Assembly: GCA_049860595.1 (NCBI GenBank)
Contig: CP187551.1
Length of the DNA: 64,000 nt
Source of the DNA: Methanocaldococcus sp. 16A
GTDB lineage: Archaea > AGJL01 > Methanococci > Methanococcales > Methanocaldococcaceae
Reading direction: 5' to 3' (one strand)
Shown one piece after another: positions 3,639-32,399 of this stretch; the stretch's first letter is position 1, and each line of letters opens with the position of its first letter. Below the pieces are notes generated by a model. That model was not told the DNA's origin. It ran no database searches and saw only the letters and a list, made by a program, of their open reading frames with translations. The position numbers were made by a program, and so were the translations under genes.

Positions 3639-6600
3639 ATGGTTCATGTTGCATGCTCTGAAAACATGAAAAAATATTTTGAAAACATTGTTAGTGAAGT
3701 CCAAAAACTTTATAAAATAGCTGAAGAGTGTAGAAAAAAGGGATTTGACCCTGTAGATGAAGTTGAAATTCCTTTAGCTGCTGATATGGCTGATAGGGTT
3801 GAGGGATTGGTAGGACCTAAAGGTGTGGCTGAGAGAATTAGGGAGTTGGTTAAAGAGTTAGGTAAAGAGCCAGCAGCCTTGGAGATAGCTAAAGAAATTG
3901 TAGAAGGAAAATTTGGAGATTTTGATAAAGAAAAGAAAGCTGAACAGGCAGTTAGAACTGCATTGGCCGTATTAACTGAAGGGATTGTTGCTGCACCATT
4001 AGAAGGAATTGCAGATGTTAAAATAAAGAAAAACCCTGATGGGACTGAATATTTAGCTATTTATTATGCAGGACCTATAAGAAGTGCTGGTGGAACAGCT
4101 CAAGCATTATCTGTTTTAGTTGGAGATTTTGTTAGAAAGGCTATGGGATTGGATAGATATAAGCCAACAGAGGATGAGATTGAGAGATATGTTGAAGAAG
4201 TTGAGTTATATCAATCAGAAGTTGGGAGCTTCCAATACAACCCAACAGCTGATGAGATTAGAACAGCCATAAGAAATATACCAATTGAGATTACTGGAGA
4301 AGCTACTGATGATGTTGAAGTTTCTGGACATAGAGATTTGCCAAGAGTAGAGACAAACCAACTAAGGGGAGGGGCATTATTAGTTTTGGTTGAGGGGGTT
4401 TTGTTAAAGGCTCCAAAAATATTGAGGCACGTTGATAAGTTAGGCATTGAAGGATGGGATTGGCTTAAAGATTTAATGAGTAAAAAAGAAGAAAAAGAAG
4501 AAGAAAAGGAAGATGAAGAAGAAAATATAGAGGAAGATAGTGAGGAAGAGGAGATATGTGGATACTGGAGAGATGTTAAAATAGAAGCAAACAAAAAGTT
4601 TATAAGTGAAGTTATTGCTGGAAGACCAGTATTTGCCCATCCATCAAAGGTTGGAGGGTTTAGATTAAGATATGGAAGAAGCAGAAACACAGGTTTTGCA
4701 ACTCAAGGATTTCATCCAGCTTTGATGTATTTGGTAGATGAATTCATGGCGGTTGGAACTCAGTTAAAGACAGAAAGACCTGGAAAGGCAACATGTGTAG
4801 TTCCAGTTGATAGCATTGAGCCACCAATTGTTAAGCTAAAAAATGGAGACGTTATTAGGGTTGATACAATAGAGAAAGCTATAGAGGTTAGAGATAGAGT
4901 TGAGGAAATTTTATTCTTAGGAGATGTTTTAGTTAATTATGGGGATTTCTTAGAGAATAACCATCCTTTATTGCCAAGCTGTTGGTGTGAAGAGTGGTAT
5001 GAGAAAATATTGATAGCTAATAATATAGAGTATGATAAAGATTTTATAAAAAATCCAAAGCCAGAAGAGGCTGTTAAATTTGCTTTAAAAACAAAAACTC
5101 CTCTACATCCAAGATTTACATACCATTGGCATGATGTTGGCAAGGAAGATATAATCTTATTAAGAAATTGGCTGTTAAAAGGGAAAGAAGATAATTTTGA
5201 AGGAAAGAATGTTTGGATTGTTGATTTGGAGACAGAAGAAGATAAAAAAGCAAAGAGAATTTTAGAGTTAATTGGATGCTGTCATTTGGTTAGGGGCAAA
5301 AATGTTATAATTGAGGAGTATTATCCTTTACTTTACTCATTAGGCTTTGATGTTGAAAATAAAAAGGATTTAATTGAGAATATAGATGAATTTTTAAAAT
5401 CAGCCAAGAATAGCATGCATCTCATTAACTTATTAGCTCCATTTGAAGTTAGAAGAAACACCTATGTATATGTTGGAGCAAGGATGGGAAGACCTGAGAA
5501 AGCTGCTCCAAGAAAGATGAAACCTCCAGTTAATGGTCTCTTTCCTATAGGAAATGCAGGAGGGCAAGTTAGATTGATAAATAAGGCTGTTGAAGAAAAC
5601 AATACAGATGATATTGAAGTTTCTTACACAAAATGTCCAAATTGTGGAAGAATCTCTTTATATAGAGTTTGTCCATTCTGTGGAAATAAAGTTGAATTAG
5701 ATGAATTTGGAAAAATTAAGGCTCCATTAAAAGATTATTGGTATTCTGCTCTAAAAAGATTGGGAATAAATAAGCCAGGAGATGTTAAGTGCATTAAAGG
5801 GATGACATCAAAGCAGAAAATTGTTGAACCTTTAGAAAAAGCCATATTAAGGGCTATGAATGAAGTTTATGTCTTTAAAGATGGAACATCAAGGTTTGAC
5901 TGTACAGATGTTCCAATAACCCATTTTAAGCCAAACGAGATAAATGTCAGTGTTGAAAAATTGAGAGAGCTTGGTTATGATAAAGACATTTATGGTAATG
6001 AGTTAGTTGATGGAGAGCAGGTCGTTGAGTTGAAACCTCAAGATGTAATTATTCCAGAGAGTTGTGTAGAGTATTTTGTCAGAGTAGCTAATTTTATAGA
6101 TGACTTGTTAGAGAAGTTTTACAATATGGAGAGATTTTACAATGTAAAAAAGAAAGAAGATTTAATTGGACACTTAGTTATTGGTATGGCTCCACATACA
6201 TCAGCAGGAATGGTTGGGAGAATTATTGGCTATACTAAAGCAAATGTAGGTTATGCACATCCATATTTCCACGCTGCTAAGAGAAGAAATTGTGACGGCG
6301 ACGAAGATGCCTTCTTTTTGCTTTTAGACGCATTTTTGAACTTTTCTAAGAAATTCCTGCCAGATAAAAGAGGAGGGCAAATGGACGCTCCATTAGTATT
6401 AACAACCATATTGGACCCAAAGGAAGTGGATGGAGAAGTTCATAATATGGATGTTGTTTGGAGTTATCCAATAGAGTTTTATGAAAAAACATTGGAGATG
6501 CCTTCACCTAAGGAGGTTAAAGAATTAATAGAAACAGTAGAGGATAGATTAGGAAAAGTTGAGCAGTATGAAGGATTAGGCTATACTCATGAAACAAGTA

Positions 6601-11385: not shown

Positions 11386-12231
11386 TTAAATCAGAGGCTT
11401 TGGTTGATTATTATTTAACACAGGTAAATCTTCAATAGTTATTAGTACATTATCTAAATCTTTAGCTCTTTCCAATAAAATCTCTTTTCCAAAATCAGAT
11501 AGAGCAAATATTGGAATAGTTTTTCCTATTTGTGCTTTTATTTTGCCTTTCAATTTTTCTCTTAAAACCTTTGATGCACAGGCAGTTATTAAATCAAAGT
11601 ATTTGGCTATTTCTTCATTCTCTTCAATTCCTGTTGTATGAACTCCAAAGGTTAATATTTTTATTTCATCATTTTCTAATGACTTGCATCTCTTAGCATC
11701 TTCTAAGTTTGTTACAGTAACCGCTATCTTTTTATATCCCAGCTCAATAGCTTTTTTAACACCTTTAAATTGATTGATTTCAGCAGTTTTTTTATCTAAA
11801 ACAATACCTTCAGATTTTTCAATTCTCTCTATAACCTCTGGAATTGGTGATGTCTCTATTATTCCAGAAATTCTCCCACAAAGACCTTGAACTAATTTTG
11901 GATTTGCAGTTATAACAGTTCCAGCACAATCTGCTACTATAACAGCAACATCTATAGCTTTTCTTTTTAAAGCACTCATTAAAATCTCAGAAGCTCCAAA
12001 CGGAACTATATATTTGCTTTCTTCAACAATTCTATCCTTTGTGAATAATCCAAAGTCCTTTATCCTAAATTCTATATTTTCTTTTATGCTTTCTTTTGTT
12101 ATCTCCTTTATTCCCCTATGTTTAGCAAACAATGGGCAGTATTTTATTTCTGGTTCTGTAATTTCAACAACTTTTCCGTTTTCAACAATAACCTTCGCTT
12201 TTCCTAAAGCCTCCATTACATGCCTACTCAT
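11386..12231 (-). CDS. methanogenesis marker protein 8 (DUF2099)
   Basis: HVMEALG, YCPLF, FGASE, DCAGTV, GRISG, GVHTTG, TACASK. Confidence 0.85.
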   Translation of the reverse strand: MSRHVMEALGKAKVIVENGKVVEITEPEIKYCPLFAKHRGIKEITKESIKENIEFRIKDFGLFTKDRIVEESKYIVPFGASEILMSALKRKAIDVAVIVADCAGTVITANPKLVQGLCGRISGIIETSPIPEVIERIEKSEGIVLDKKTAEINQFKGVKKAIELGYKKIAVTVTNLEDAKRCKSLENDEIKILTFGVHTTGIEENEEIAKYFDLITACASKVLREKLKGKIKAQIGKTIPIFALSDFGKEILLERAKDLDNVLITIEDLPVLNNNQPKPLI

Positions 12232-12297
12232 CTATATCCCTCTTACTAAAGATTTAAATCTAAGGATAAAACTTAAGAAAAAATAAAAATAAATGTT

Positions 12298-12981
12298 TTA
12301 TTCTTTTAGATATTTTTCTAAGTAGTAATTAATTATCTCCTCTCCACTTAGATAAACTAAGTTATGTTTCTCAGCATATCTTTTTGTTTCATTTTTACTC
12401 ATAGCTTCTCCATCATCACCCATCATTTCACATATTGTAGTAATAGGCACTAAATTAGCCATCTCTGCCAAAGCTACTGTCATCTCAGTATGTCCCTGCC
12501 TATTTTTAACTAAACCTTCAGCAGCTCTTAATAAAGTTACATGCCCCGGACTTCTAAATTCCTTTCCAAAATCATTAAATCTTCCTTCTTTAACCAATTC
12601 AGCTAATTTTTTTATAGTAAATGCTCTATCATTGTCTGTAATTCCCGTAAATGTCTTTCTGTGGTTTATTGTTATTGAAAATGATGATTTCTCATCGTAA
12701 GGGATGTCGTTTGGATAAAGTTCTTTTAGAACTTTAAACTTTTGAGACGCAAATTCTAATATATCAACCATAAATGGAATGCCTAATTTATTGCATATAT
12801 CTGGATGAATAGCTGTGCAAATCAATCCTCCAGCATCTTTTCTCATTGTCCTTATATGTTGTGGTGTAATAAATTGAGAAGCAACAACCATATCTGTCTC
12901 TCCCTCTCTGTCATCTGAGTCATAAACTAAAATAATTTCCCCTCTTTTTAATGCTTCTATAGCTTTTTCTATATTATTCAT
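12298..12981 (-). CDS. ribB: 3,4-dihydroxy-2-butanone 4-phosphate synthase
   Basis: [33 protein letters not shown]. Confidence 0.96.
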
Positions 12982-27668: not shown

Positions 27669-28049
27669 CTAAATGCTAATTGTAGTTAGTTGAGCTAGTT
27701 CAACATTACTAATTCCTTTTAGTTTATTTACTAATTCTATTATTCTATTTCTTTGCCCTTTAATTGCTATTTTCCTAATAATTTTTCCTTCAAATGGAAT
27801 TTCGAGGGATACTATTACAATATCTCTATAATAGCTCTCTAACTCAATAATATCCTCAACAGCCTTTGAATTATATATAACAGTTATTTCTCCAATTTTT
27901 GATTCAATCCTACTAAGCCAGTCATATTTTTTTACATAATACTCTAAAGCTCTTCTTATAAATTCTGAACGAGATATTTTTTCCTTATTTATAATTTCAT
28001 CAACTTCTTTCAGTAGATTTTTTTCAATGGTTAATGAAATTCGTTCCAT
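27669..28049 (-). CDS. NikR/CopG-family ribbon-helix-helix regulator with ACT-like C-domain
   Basis: MERISLTI...SRSEFIRRAL RHH motif; G.ITVIY and KG..I..L..KL pattern of the NikR C-domain. Confidence 0.88.
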   Translation of the reverse strand: MERISLTIEKNLLKEVDEIINKEKISRSEFIRRALEYYVKKYDWLSRIESKIGEITVIYNSKAVEDIIELESYYRDIVIVSLEIPFEGKIIRKIAIKGQRNRIIELVNKLKGISNVELAQLTTISI

Positions 28050-28229
28050 AATATCACTTTTGTAATACTTATTTACAGGATAGTATTAAAAGATGTATAA
28101 TATAAAAATATTACTATTAAAAATTAAGAATTAAAATATATAAAAATTAATATATATTCAAGTATTTGTTTTTAATAGTGTTTTTATGAATATTTTAATT
28201 TAAGATATAACTTCATATTAAAAACCAAA

Positions 28230-28245
28230 CCGAAAATATTATATA
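28230..28245 (+). promoter_or_regulatory. BRE-TATA promoter of candidate sRNA
   Basis: CCGAAAATATTATATA, same form as the tRNA and histone promoters in this window. Confidence 0.75.
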
Positions 28246-28266
28246 TGATGAATTTTGTCATATAAC

Positions 28267-28357
28267 GTATGCCATAGGAATCACTCCCACACAAATTTAG
28301 CAGGTTCAAGGAGGCAAAAGTTCTATGTATATATCGGGCTCACCTCTGTGAGGATTT
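28267..28357 (+). ncRNA. candidate structured small RNA
   Basis: Relatively GC-rich island in an AT-rich spacer directly after a strong promoter; two predicted hairpins; no long ORF. Confidence 0.5.
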
Positions 28358-28361
28358 ATAA

Positions 28362-28440
28362 TGGGGCTTTCACAAGAATTAGTTAAAGAATTTAATGTAC
28401 TTTAGGCTTCTCAATCCTTTGAATAATCTATGAAATCTTT
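28362..28440. repeat. degenerate family A element
   Basis: TGGGGCTTTCACAAGAAT...GAATTTAATGTACTTTAGGCTTCTCAATCC resembles 16751-16845. Confidence 0.5.
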
Positions 28441-28509
28441 TTAATTTTTTAATTTATTTATTTTAATATTATTATTTATATATTTTTTAGTAATTTTTAG
28501 GAAAAAAAT

Positions 28510-28524
28510 AGAAAATTTTATATA
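28510..28524 (+). promoter_or_regulatory. BRE-TATA promoter of MCR II operon
   Basis: AGAAAATTTTATATA about 60 nt upstream of the beta subunit start. Confidence 0.65.
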
Positions 28525-28585
28525 CTCATTACTATTATTTTTTGTAGTCGTAGTATAATATTAACAAAAATGGCTGGTGTTGATA

Positions 28586-29929
28586 ATGCTACATTATGAA
28601 GATAAAATAGATTTATATGATGAAAGAGGGAAGTTATTAGAGGAAAATGTTCCATTAGAAGCGATAAGTCCGTTAAAAAACCCAACAATTGAGAAGATAG
28701 TTAATGACATTAAGAGGAGTGTTGCTATAAACTTGGCAGGAATAGAAAATGCTTTAAGAACTGGAGCTATTGGGGGTAAGGCATGTTTCTGTCCTGGTAG
28801 AGAGTTGGATTTACCAATTGTAGAAAATGCAGAAATTATTGCTGAAAAAATAAAAAGAATAGTTCAAATTGATGAAGATGATGATACTGTTGTTAAGTTA
28901 ATCAACGGAGGTAAGCAGATACTCTTACAGTTGCCATCAAAAAGATTGAGAGTAGCTGCTGACTATACCGTTTCAGCACTAATTGGAGGAGGAGCAACAG
29001 TCCAAGCAATTGTTGATACTTTTGAAGTAGATATGTTCGATGCTCCAGTAGTTAAAACAGCAGTTATGGGAAGATATCCACAAACAGTTGATTTTCATGG
29101 GGCTAATATTGCTACTTTATTAGGGCCACCAGTTTTATTAGAAGGATTAGGTTATGGATTGAGAAATATTATGGCAAACCACATTGTAGCAGTTACAAGG
29201 AAAAAGACATTAAATGCTGTTGCTTTAGCGTCAATATTAGAGCAGACAGCAATGTTTGAAACTGGAGATGCTTTAGGGGCATTTGAGAGATTGCACTTAT
29301 TAGGATTAGCTTTCCAGGGATTAAATGCCAACAATTTAACTTATGAACTTGTAAAACAGAATGGGAAAAATGGAACTGTTGGAACTGTGGTAGCTTCAGT
29401 AGTTGAGAGAGCTTTAGAGGATGGAGTTATAAGACCTTTAAAAACTATGCCTTCTGGATACACAGTTTATGAACCAGTTGATTGGGCTTTATGGAATGCC
29501 TATGCTGCATCAGGTTTAGTTGCTGCGGTTATCGTTAATGTAGGTGCAGCAAGAGCTGCTCAAGGTGTAGCATCAACTGTCCTTTACTACAACGATATCT
29601 TAGAATATGAAACTGGTTTGCCAAGCGTTGATTTTGGAAGAGCAGAGGGAACAGCTGTTGGATTCTCATTCTTTAGTCACTCAATCTATGGTGGAGGAGG
29701 ACCTGGAACATTCCACGGAAACCACGTTGTTACAAGACACTCAAAAGGATTTGCTATCCCATGTGCTGCAGCTGCAATGTGTTTAGATGCTGGAACTCAA
29801 ATGTTCTCAGTTGAGAGAACTTCAGCGTTAGTAGGAACTGTCTATAGTGCTATTGACCACTTAAGAGAGCCGTTAAAATATGTTGCTGAGGGAGCTATGG
29901 AGATAAAAGAAAAAGAAAAAGTTATCTAA
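28586..29929 (+). CDS. mcrB: methyl-coenzyme M reductase II beta subunit (mrtB)
   Basis: [30 protein letters not shown]. Confidence 0.97.
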
Positions 29930-29940
29930 ATGGTGATTAG

Positions 29941-30741
29941 ATGGCATACAAACCACAATTTTATCCTGGAAATACAATAATTGCTGAAAATAGAAGAAAG
30001 CATATGAATCCTGATGTTGAGTTAAAGAAATTGAGAGATATTCCAGATGATGGAATAGTTAAGATATTAGGGCATAGAAACCCCGGTGAAAGCTATAAGA
30101 CAGTTCATCCACCATTAGAAGAGATGGACTTTGAAGAGGACCCAATTAAAGAGATTGTTGAACCAATTCAAGGAGCTAAGGAGGGAGTTAGAGTTAGATA
30201 CATTCAGTTTGCTGATTCTATGTATAACGCCCCGGCTCAACCTTATGATAGAGCAAGAACATATATGTGGAGATTTAGAGGGATTGATACAGGGACATTA
30301 TCTGGTAGGCAAGTCATTGAGATGAGAGAGCTTGACTTAGAAAAAATCTCAAAAAACTTTTTAATTGATACAGAATTCTTTGACCCAGCGACCTGTGGAA
30401 TTAGAGGAGCAACTGTCCATGGACACTCATTGAGGTTAGATGAGAATGGTTTAATGTTTGATGGTTTGCAGAGATACATCTATGATGAAAAGACTGGACA
30501 TGTTTTGTATGTTAAAGACCAGGTTGGAAGACCATTAGATGAGCCAGTAGATGTTGGAGAACCGTTACCACAAGATTATTTGGCAAAAATAACAACAATT
30601 TACAGAAAAGACAACATTGGAATGAGAGAAGATAAAGAGGCATTAGAAGTTGTTCAAATAATCCATGAGGCAAGAACAAAAGGAGGATTTGGTTTGGAAG
30701 TATTTAAAAAAGATTTGAAAAAGAGATTAGGTGAAGAATAA
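29941..30741 (+). CDS. mcrG: methyl-coenzyme M reductase II gamma subunit (mrtG)
   Basis: [30 protein letters not shown]. Confidence 0.97.
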
Positions 30742-32399
30742 TGGATGTTGAGAAAAAACTCTTTCTAAAGGCATTAAAGGAGAAGTTTGAAGAAGACCCA
30801 AAAGAAAAATACACTAAATTTTATATATTTGGAGGATGGAGACAATCAGCAAGGAAAAGAGAGTTTGTTGAATTTGCTCAAAAGTTAATTGAGAAAAGAG
30901 GAGGAATTCCATTCTACAACCCAGATATTGGGGTTCCATTAGGGCAGAGAAAGTTGATGACATACAAGATATCAGGAACTGATGCTTTTGTTGAAGGGGA
31001 TGACTTACATTTCTGTAACAACGCAGCAATACAACAGTTAGTTGATGATATTAAAAGAACAGTTATTGTTGGTATGGACACAGCCCACGCTGTTCTCGAA
31101 AAAAGATTAGGTGTAGAGGTTACCCCAGAGACAATTAACGAATACATGGAGACTATTAACCACGCTTTACCAGGAGGGGCTGTTGTCCAAGAGCACATGG
31201 TTGAGGTCCATCCTGGTTTAGTTTGGGATTGTTATGCCAAGATATTTACAGGAAATGATGAATTGGCTGATGAGATTGATAAAAGGTTTTTAATTGACAT
31301 AAATAAAGAATTCCCTGAAGAACAGGCAGAGATGTTAAAGAAATACATTGGAAATAGAACATATCAAGTAAGTAGAGTTCCTACAATAGTTGTTAGATGC
31401 TGTGATGGAGGGACTGTTGCAAGATGGAGTGCTATGCAGATAGGTATGAGTTTCATTACTGCCTATAAATTATGTGCTGGAGAGGCTGCTATCGCTGATT
31501 TCTCTTATGCAGCTAAGCACGCTGATGTTATCCAAATGGGAACAATATTGCCAGCAAGAAGAGCAAGAGGGCCAAATGAGCCGGGAGGAGTTCCATTTGG
31601 AATATTCGCTGATATAATACAAACATCAAGGGTTAGTGATGACCCAGCTCAAGTGACATTAGAGGTTATTGGTGCAGCAGCAACATTCTATGACCAAGTT
31701 TGGTTAGGAAGCTACATGTCTGGAGGAGTAGGATTCACTCAATATGCATCAGCAACATACACAGATGATATCTTAGACGATTTCGTTTATTATGGATTAG
31801 ACTATGTTGAAAAGAAGTATGGATTGTGTGGGGTAAAGCCAAGTATGGATGTTGTTAAGGATATAGCGACAGAAGTAACTTTATACGGTTTAGAACAGTA
31901 TGATGAGTATCCTGCCTTATTAGAAGACCACTTTGGTGGCTCTCAAAGAGCAGGAGTTACAGCAGCTGCAGCTGGATGTTCAGTAGCTTTTGCTACAGGA
32001 AACTCAAACGCTGGAATTAACGGATGGTACTTAAGCCAAATAATGCATAAAGAATACCACAGCAGATTAGGATTCTATGGTTATGATTTACAAGACCAGT
32101 GTGGAGCTGCTAATTCCCTATCAATTAGAAGCGATGAAGGTCTATTGCACGAATGTAGAGGACCTAACTATCCAAACTACGCAATGAACGTTGGGCATCA
32201 GCCAGAGTATGCAGGAATTGCTCAAGCTCCTCATGCGGCAAGAGGAGATGCGTTCTGTCTAAACCCAATAATTAAAGTAGCATTTGCAGATGACAACTTA
32301 ATATTTGACTTCAAATGGCCGAGAAAATGTATAGCTAAGGGAGCATTAAGAGAATTTGAGCCAGCTGGAGAGAGAGACTTAATTATTCCAGCGGCATAA
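30741..32399 (+). CDS. mcrA: methyl-coenzyme M reductase II alpha subunit (mrtA)
   Basis: [40 protein letters not shown]; operon lacks C and D genes. Confidence 0.98.

Follow-up and report, generated by a model that had tools for sequence, protein, structure and literature searches.

In E. coli, the small RNA MicF is encoded beside ompC and represses ompF. The candidate sRNA that we describe here resembles MicF in being about 90 nt long, in appearing to have its own promoter, in lying beside one of two paralogues and in being able to pair with the SD and AUG of the mRNA of the other paralogue. MicF, however, is bacterial and Hfq-dependent, pairs imperfectly and has a single monocistronic target, whereas our candidate, which has no sequence relation to it, belongs to a hyperthermophilic archaeon and would use two near-perfect 24-bp modules against two cistrons of one polycistronic mRNA. 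The nearest archaeal precedent, by analogy, would be sRNA41 of Methanosarcina mazei, which reportedly masks several ribosome binding sites in the polycistronic ACDS mRNA. Both would be trans-encoded sRNAs of a methanogen that occlude ribosome binding sites in more than one cistron of a polycistronic message belonging to central energy metabolism, but sRNA41 reportedly acts through one short anti-SD-like stretch on several similar sites, whereas the candidate carries two long modules with a single target each; the organism, the targets and the sequence also differ, and we found no homology between the two in Rfam or otherwise. Long, perfect complementarity to a start region is likewise a property of cis-encoded antisense RNAs, such as those of plasmid copy control and type I toxin-antitoxin systems, and the likeness extends to complementary hairpins of the "kissing" kind (CUCAC-CUCU-GUGAG in the candidate, CUCAC-AGAG-GUGAG in the leader of its mcrA target). 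Unlike those RNAs, the candidate is encoded 557 kb from its targets.

The genes concerned are those of MCR, the enzyme of the step that forms methane and one of the most abundant methanogen proteins. An H2-dependent switch between the isoenzymes MCR I and MCR II has been known since about 1990, and to our knowledge descriptions of its control deal only with the amounts of transcript and enzyme. According to one review, in Methanothermobacter MCR II is made under non-gas-limiting and MCR I under gas-limiting conditions (PMC9081873). Our literature searches yielded no description of the candidate, nor of an sRNA that targets mcr or mrt genes; the lists of Klein et al. 2002, Schattner 2002 and Smollett et al. 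2017 may include a transcript at this position.

The DNA that we analysed (the window) is a stretch of 64,000 nucleotides from the 1.62-Mb genome of Methanocaldococcus sp. 16A. An intergenic region of 527 nt within it, between a NikR-family gene on the minus strand and mrtB on the plus strand, holds the candidate sRNA gene, and the features of this locus are as follows.

27669..28049, minus strand: divergent NikR-family gene (Pfam RHH_1 and NikR_C)
28230..28246, plus strand: BRE/TATA promoter of the candidate sRNA, CCGAAAA-TA-TTATATAT, read in the sequence
28242..28264, no strand assigned: palindrome TATATGA-N9-TCATATA, overlapping the TATA element and the initially melted region
28267, plus strand: predicted transcription start, a G lying 25 nt after the start of TATATGA, from promoter geometry
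28267..28357, plus strand: predicted minimal sRNA body, about 90 nt
28270..28293, plus strand: block A, lying antisense to the mcrB SD and AUG (MCR I beta; G000:C1:911024-911047)
28294..28331, plus strand: variable spacer (32% mean pairwise identity)
28332..28355, plus strand: block B, lying antisense to the mcrA SD and AUG (MCR I alpha; G000:C1:914399-914422)
28438..28450, plus strand: first strong T-tracts past block B (T5, T6), a possible 3' end should UUUAU at 28355-28359 fail to terminate
28508..28525, plus strand: separate proximal promoter of mrtBGA, a second BRE/TATA (AGAAAATTTTATATAC) near 28510, read in the sequence
28586..32399, plus strand: MCR II operon, comprising mrtB (28586-29929), mrtG (29941-30741) and mrtA (30741-32399), with Pfam matches to MCR_beta, MCR_gamma and MCR_alpha
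29932..29949, plus strand: mrtG start region, a weak secondary site and the target first proposed for the sRNA

The initial annotation of this DNA had pointed to the BRE-TATA element, the palindrome, the start near G28267, a hairpin at 28339-28352 and the second promoter near 28510, and all of these are present where it placed them. Its broader proposal, that of a promoter-driven, RBS-masking, trans-acting sRNA tied to the choice between MCR I and MCR II, is also the reading that we favour on the strength of sequence comparisons, but with other principal targets than mrtG. The MCR I operon, which we identified by tblastn and Pfam as mcrB-D-C-G-A, escaped the initial annotation because it lies outside the window. 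We note that the NikR-like gene has a TATA-like stretch of its own near 28095-28106.

The evidence for the targets comes from a comparison of positions 28230-28400 with the genome from which they derive. Using blastn-short we found exactly two long non-self matches, both of them perfect 22-mers lying antisense to an SD and ATG: that of block A (28272-28293) is the reverse complement of C1:911024-911045 (E 1.3e-5) at the start of mcrB, and that of block B (28333-28354) is the reverse complement of C1:914400-914421 at the start of mcrA. With terminal extensions, which for block A are a G.U and an A-U pair, each duplex comes to 24 bp. The spacer between the blocks (28294-28331) has no significant match elsewhere in the genome by the same method. 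When the 91-nt RNA was subjected to 2000 dinucleotide shuffles, the longest genome match was at least 18 nt in 12 of them and 20 nt in one, and a match of 22 nt never arose. The complementarity of this element to the SD and start codon of an unlinked mRNA exceeds chance. What the initial annotation had called a second anti-SD-like motif, within the hairpin CTCAC-CTCT-GTGAG (28339-28352), does exist, but it is in fact the core of the block directed against mcrA, inside which the whole hairpin lies.

The predicted energies single out the same two sites. The duplex of block A with mcrB is predicted at -46.1 kcal/mol at 37 C and -18.0 at 80 C, and that of block B with mcrA at -49.7 and -21.35. The optimal growth temperature of M. 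jannaschii is given as 85 C in PMC9081873, and stability at 80 C is therefore the relevant figure. In a scan of both strands of the genome with RNAduplex at 80 C, in which only sites with a perfect 7-mer seed were scored, mcrB and mcrA came first by a wide margin, the next best sites reaching -9.3 (block A) and -13.3 (block B). The start regions of mrtB and mrtA show no complementarity to the sRNA (-0.7 to -3.2 at 80 C). One block A look-alike, at C1:1144498-1144520, proved to be the start region of an unrelated 235-aa ORF, with an energy of only -9.2 kcal/mol, and was set aside. In Zhang et al. 2009 (PMC2699501, Table S2), the start of MJ0842 (mcrB) is mapped 25 nt upstream of its ATG, and the string printed there matches the mcrB leader of genome G010 letter for letter; on a leader of this length the sRNA would thus cover all but the first 6-7 nt. 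Neither the main text nor the readable supplements of that paper cover MJ0080, MJ0081 or MJ0083.

Several observations bear on whether and how the element is transcribed. All 12 genomes that bear the element keep the promoter core GAAARTATTATATAT ahead of the antisense block, and the promoter shares the form of strong M. jannaschii promoters, such as ACGAAAAATTTTAAATA, listed in Table S2 of Zhang et al. (PMC2699501). A G stands at the predicted start position in six of seven genus relatives, and across relatives block B ends 48 to 146 nt from the predicted start. Tracts of T7-T8 lie some 0-15 nt past block B in G010, G001, G015, G006, G028 and G019. Only TTTAT directly follows block B in the present genome, as also in G011, and the 3' end is therefore uncertain here. 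Transcription of the plus strand is supported by the orientation of the BRE, the oligo-T past block B in six genomes and the order of the blocks. Indeed, read on the minus strand, the element would give start mimics of mcrA and then mcrB, the reverse of their order in the operon, and it is therefore no mere remnant of an operon copy that became inverted. Together with the missing ATG of the mcrA mimic, this order speaks against a relic or a decoy.

The RNA itself appears to offer little besides its two blocks. Its predicted fold in this genome at 80 C has an energy of 0.0 kcal/mol, that is, it would be unfolded, and no internal structure common to the element was seen among the genus genomes that we compared. 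An Rfam scan over the element, which extended to the Hgc RNAs of AT-rich hyperthermophiles, gave no match at E<=10, none of the homologous loci L004, L003, L100 and L139 has a match at the Rfam gathering score, and ARAGORN detects no tRNA at the element. Of the small ORFs here (8 codons at 28326-28352; 14 codons with an SD at 28361-28405; 43 aa from a TTG at 28255-28386), none is conserved in relatives. We rejected the idea of a C/D box sRNA: the C-box-like ATGATGA (28245-28251) sits between the TATA element and the predicted start, no CTGA box follows downstream, the only sub-threshold snoRNA matches are at 28613-28694 within mrtB, and no Rfam C/D family matches the element. A cis-acting leader or riboswitch of mrtBGA was rejected likewise, as the centre of the element is unconserved (0 to about 100 nt), the RNA is predicted to be unfolded at 80 C, and the element is kept in G011, which lacks mrtB. 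The palindrome overlapping the promoter resembles the half-site of E. coli NikR. It is perfect only in the present genome, one of seven, and has at most one mismatch in three of the seven, its right arm diverging in G010, G001, G006 and G014; since it is perfect in this genome only, it is probably not a selected operator, and we rejected a NikR-type operator because the inverted repeat is not conserved across the seven genomes and is probably incidental.

The promoter and both blocks are conserved in relatives. A DNA search of 41 related genomes recovered the syntenic intergenic region in six relatives within the genus (G011, G015, G010, G001, G006 and G014). Over the seven genus genomes, mean pairwise identity is 84% in the promoter (28230-28266), 87% in block A (28267-28293) and 86% in block B (28333-28356), and falls to 32% in the spacer and 27% in the DNA past block B, with 27-46% in the flanking and intervening intergenic DNA. 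The spacer has 0 nt in G006 and carries an insert of about 100 nt with a 16-17 bp stem in G015, G010 and G001. As the blocks are conserved and no internal fold is common to the relatives, selection acts on these blocks as sequences and not on structure. The proximal promoter of mrtBGA is conserved in its own right (86% identity among the six genomes that keep mrtB), with its BRE/TATA about 60-75 nt ahead of the mrtB ATG. An orthologue of the NikR-family gene adjoins the element in all seven genus genomes that have it and in two genomes of genus g3.

Across the order, an MCR II-type second operon is found in 11 of 40 genomes, six of them in the genus and five in three other genera, and every one of the 11 has the element on the mrtB strand, upstream of that gene. 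One of these, G006, has broken mrt genes and a degraded block A. Outside the genus, the antisense match to the start of the genome's own mcrB spans 24 nt in G028, 20 nt in G019 and 14 nt in G034, G023 and G032; the latter three have block A only, without block B, about 640 nt from mrtB. Block B of G028 matches its own mcrA start perfectly over 19 nt, in G019 two of the pairs of this block are G.U, and T7 tracts follow in both. A 13-mer of the mcrB leader, CCATAGGAAYCAC, is shared by many genomes of the order (at least one match in 25 of 40), and a second copy of it, on the sRNA strand, occurs only in genomes that bear MCR II. Five extra matches to the 13-mer (in G010, G001, G007, G013 and G020) fall in the start regions of other genes in the four genomes other than G001, and a 13-mer close to the NikR orthologue of G012, in what looks like coding sequence, was judged a chance occurrence. 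With the sequence queries used here the element was not found in genus genomes lacking MCR II other than G011, and in the incomplete assemblies G004 and G007 (86%) only the mcrA leader itself matches. A search at the level of the phylum drew on the same genomes as that of the order, and no MCR was found in the class of G040.

G011 lacks MCR II and keeps the promoter and both blocks, with perfect stretches of 15 and 17 nt, beside the NikR-like gene. The retention of the element where there is no mrtB argues that it does not act only in cis on mrtB and, together with its decay in G006, that a strict role as a switch is not required for it to be kept.

The blocks co-vary with the mcrB and mcrA leaders of the genomes in which they occur. 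We extracted the mcrB and mcrA start regions of each genome and compared them with that genome's own blocks. For block A and mcrB, genus g1 has GGAAUCACUCCCAC with GUGGGAGUGAUUCC and genus g3 (G028 and G019) has GGAACCACUCCUAC with GUAGGAGUGGUUCC, which amounts to two exact two-sided changes. For block B and mcrA, G014 has CUGCGAGG with CCUCGCAG, and ACUC with GAGU; its mcrA leader reads CCTCGCAGAGGTGAGT and its sRNA ACTCACCTCTGCGAGG, two two-sided changes relative to the present genome. G010 and G001 have GAGGAAUU paired with AAUUCCUC, the target reading AATTCCTC and the sRNA GAGGAATT, and the differences in G019, G011 and G006 are accommodated as G.U wobbles. There are thus at least five two-sided compensatory changes; because the relatives are not independent, independent compensatory events are few, about five. 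Pairing energies tell the same story, in that the mcrB leader of the sRNA's own clade is bound better than that of the other clade by 12 of 12 sRNAs and the own-clade mcrA leader is bound better in all nine genomes with block B. The sRNA of G014, for example, reaches -15.2 kcal/mol on its own mcrA leader and -9.1 to -10.4 on other leaders of the genus. A perfect match to targets 557 kb away implies selection on both loci, and the compensatory changes show it.

A weaker and mixed signal of a similar kind in Methanobacterium is suggestive only. All ten Methanobacterium genomes with both isoenzymes have a C-rich stretch on the same strand 65-330 nt upstream of mrtB whose complementarity with the SD region of their own mcrB runs to 8-13 nt, for example UUUUCCCUCC against GGAGGGAAAA. 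In G049, G052/G053 and G050/G058 the match reaches past the SD and follows the leader of the same genome, and in G051 and G057 it spans only 10 nt; when we predicted the mcrB leaders of G054, G055 and G056 from their upstream blocks, all three predictions were wrong beyond the SD core. With the SD held fixed and its flanks shuffled, the real energy was reached by 5 to 43 of 500 shuffles. Of the loci titled Methanobacterium, Methanobacteriaceae or Methanobacteriota, 26 have enough DNA upstream, and 20 of these carry such a block; none of the 20 loci L165-L184, most of which are titled Methanobrevibacter, does.

We think it probable, from these comparisons, that the element encodes a trans-acting, RBS-masking antisense sRNA that lies beside MCR II and represses the translation of MCR I. 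Transcription would run rightward from the BRE/TATA at 28230-28246, start near G28267 and end shortly past block B; in most relatives strong oligo-T would mark that end, in this genome either the weak UUUAU or the T-tracts at 28438-28450. Block A, presumably unstructured, would form 24 bp with the 25-nt mcrB leader, its SD and its AUG, and block B, likewise unstructured, would form 24 bp with the SD and AUG of mcrA. With SD and start codon covered, ribosome loading on the beta and alpha cistrons would be blocked, and the mRNA might be laid open to decay, such that synthesis of the sRNA would lower that of MCR I. Since the gene is tied to MCR II across the order, the sRNA most likely aids the reciprocal expression of the isoenzymes. 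We infer the transcript, its ends and the conditions of its expression, and repression as the direction of its effect solely from the position of the pairing. We also note that MCR mRNA is very abundant, so that the sRNA would need to be made in large amounts to matter.

Four other readings deserve consideration. The blocks might belong to a long mrtBGA leader made from the distal promoter, through which the MCR II messenger would pair with the MCR I messenger in a form of mRNA-mRNA cross-talk. They do lie on the same strand as mrtB, 230-320 nt upstream, with no strong T-tract past block B before 28438-28450 in the present genome, and the C-rich block of Methanobacterium is 65-180 nt from mrtB in five of ten genomes (G049, G050, G052, G053 and G058), although it is up to about 330 nt away in G054. 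We nevertheless regard such a leader as unlikely, given the T7-T8 tracts directly past block B in six relatives (G010, G001, G015, G006, G028 and G019), the separate conserved BRE/TATA ahead of mrtB, the poor conservation (27%) of the DNA between block B and that promoter, and the survival of promoter and blocks in G011 with no mrtB downstream. The sRNA might also pair as we describe and stabilise or activate the mcr mRNA, for example by protecting its very short 5' leader from a 5'-3' exonuclease or by guiding processing between cistrons. Archaeal sRNAs that stabilise their targets are known, and the retention of the element in G011, which has MCR I only, would be easier to understand if its role were positive or one of tuning. 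If the mcrB start mapped in Zhang et al. 2009 applies, pairing would begin 6-7 nt from the 5' end of the message, as would suit protection. Both duplexes, however, bury an SD and AUG, the classic geometry of a translational block, and the tie to the other isoenzyme, present in 11 of 11 genomes, suits antagonism better; a stabilising role therefore seems to us improbable.

The initial annotation took the main job of the sRNA to be the masking of the RBS and start of mrtG, and perhaps of mcrG. The pairing that it described, of 9+7 bp between GUAUGCCAU/AAUCACU and GGUGAUU-AG-AUGGCAUAC at 29932-29949, exists and outdoes shuffled versions of the sRNA block, of which none in 1000 equals it at 37 C and two in 1000 do so at 80 C, and a 10+7 bp pairing with mcrG, at -23.9 kcal/mol at 37 C and -6.2 at 80 C, is reached by 0 of 1000 shuffles at either temperature. 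GTGATT-NN-ATGGCATAC occurs in the whole genome only at the mcrG and mrtG starts, and a third, weak site is therefore possible; the 5' GUAUG is also kept in five of seven genus relatives. The mrtG pairing is nonetheless worth only -22.0 kcal/mol at 37 C and -4.7 at 80 C, far below the pairings with mcrB and mcrA (-18 and -21 at 80 C), and among the 2707 windows that contain a seed it comes 80th at 37 C and 438th at 80 C, with mcrG 38th and 91st. In genus g3 the 5' sequence (AUAUACCAU) does not match AUGGCAUAC, and the mrtG-type match is lost. The pairing with mrtG is largely a by-product of the resemblance among the mcrB, mcrG and mrtG starts, which share an SD-spacer-ATGG arrangement, and it is very unlikely that mrtG or mcrG is the main target. 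Equally far from what we would expect is that there is no functional RNA, the element being instead a DNA relic, a site to which protein binds, or a minus-strand transcript that leads into the NikR-like gene and mimics the mcrA and mcrB starts. The reverse complement of block A does read as an SD followed by ATG GCA TAC, and the NikR-family gene is on the minus strand 220 nt away; but the mcrA start mimic has no ATG (GAT ATA), the order of the blocks on that strand is opposite to that of the operon, the orientation of the BRE and the oligo-T tracts suit the plus strand, and the NikR-like gene has its own TATA-like stretch. Two distinct 22-mers would, moreover, require two distinct binding proteins, and two-sided compensation with unlinked targets is not expected of a relic. 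We thus give this last reading hardly any weight.

An sRNA encoded beside MCR II and antisense to the mcrB and mcrA starts would provide a concrete mechanism for the isoenzyme switch and, because M. jannaschii has a genetic system (reported in PMC9081873), one that is directly testable. If our interpretation is correct, this would be a rare archaeal sRNA with clear targets and intermolecular co-variation, from a hyperthermophile, in which a duplex must be long to be stable, and an archaeal parallel to the MicF/ompF mode of control between paralogues. It is possible, and we suggest this more tentatively, that the element is part of an ancient MCR II-linked RNA switch in which an antisense RNA silences the structural cistrons of MCR I, having co-evolved with them across four genera of the Methanococcales, possibly with a simpler counterpart in Methanobacterium and maybe with the help of an unusual Hfq-family protein in Methanocaldococcus and genus g3. 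Such a switch, if it exists, would be the missing post-transcriptional layer of the H2-dependent control of MCR I and MCR II.

The mcrA leader on the MCR I side (contig C1, 914399-914422, outside the window) can fold as CUCAC-AGAG-GUGAG, leaving its own Shine-Dalgarno (SD) sequence half-buried, and this hairpin is the exact complement of the hairpin at 28339-28352 in the candidate sRNA. Judged from this sequence match, the candidate sRNA and the mcrA leader could therefore meet as complementary hairpins. The genome also encodes an Hfq-family protein:

C1, 1416050-1416193 (outside the window): Hfq-family gene (PF17209)

This gene is found in 17/17 genomes of Methanocaldococcus and in both genomes of genus g3 (G028 and G019), and in none of 21 genomes from other genera of the order. 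The candidate sRNA with both antisense blocks, the 3' hairpin and the U tail is confined to the same two genera, a correlation that spans just two lineages; the Hfq-family gene is found too in Methanocaldococcus genomes that do not carry the candidate sRNA. In M. jannaschii the promoter of mcrB (MJ0842) has a relative TBP/TFB binding affinity of 0.025, the lowest among the compared rows of Table S4 of PMC2699501. Set against the abundance of MCR, this low affinity, as ranked within those rows, hints that MCR I expression is under additional control.

Two relatives have lost MCR II or carry it with interrupted genes. MCR I is the only MCR operon of G011 (L002, L064), where the NikR-like gene, the candidate sRNA promoter, block A (antisense to the mcrB start) and block B (antisense to the mcrA start) are all kept. 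Similarity ends completely about 20 nt past block B, and for this reason it looks as if mrtBGA was recently deleted or replaced in this genome. In G006 (L006, L024, L030, L052, L053), frame changes and stop codons interrupt both mrtB and mrtG. The spacer of the candidate sRNA is gone in this genome, and block A differs by one mismatch and a deletion of 1 nt, with block B left intact; MCR II and its candidate sRNA may be decaying jointly in G006, or the changes may be assembly errors. Downstream of block B in the window lies a short reading frame with GAGG 7 nt upstream of it:

28361-28405: 14-codon ORF, MGLSQELVKEFNVL

It is probably not a gene, since it is shortened to 3 codons in G011 and missing in other relatives. 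On the 13-kb contig C3 of this assembly, the same short matches occur twice about 6560 nt apart (at about 5459-6366 and 12021-12927), which suggests either an extensive duplication within the contig or a small circular element that the assembly has run through twice.

At a locus from a record titled Methanothermococcus sp. (L139, 1843-2500), a 14-nt block A is separated from mrtB by about 640 nt that include GC-richer stretches and lack a convincing ORF, and in this genus the candidate RNA may be much longer. On the upstream side, the neighboring gene encodes a MoxR-like ATPase, not NikR. In Methanobacterium (L135-L164, G049-G058), 10/10 genomes examined have a C-rich anti-SD stretch on the same strand as mrtB, 65-330 nt upstream of that gene, with 8-13 nt of complementarity to the SD region of mcrB in the same genome. 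Co-variation past the SD is seen in some Methanobacterium lineages and fails in others.

Divergent from the candidate sRNA and the MCR II operon is a regulator gene:

27669-28049 (-): NikR-family gene (RHH_1 and NikR_C domains)

It adjoins the candidate sRNA divergently in all seven Methanocaldococcus genomes with the element, and a NikR-family gene with 51-52% identity adjoins the element, again divergently, in 2/2 genomes of genus g3 (L100, L101). Because MCR requires the nickel cofactor F430, it is conceivable that the candidate sRNA or mrt is under nickel-dependent control.
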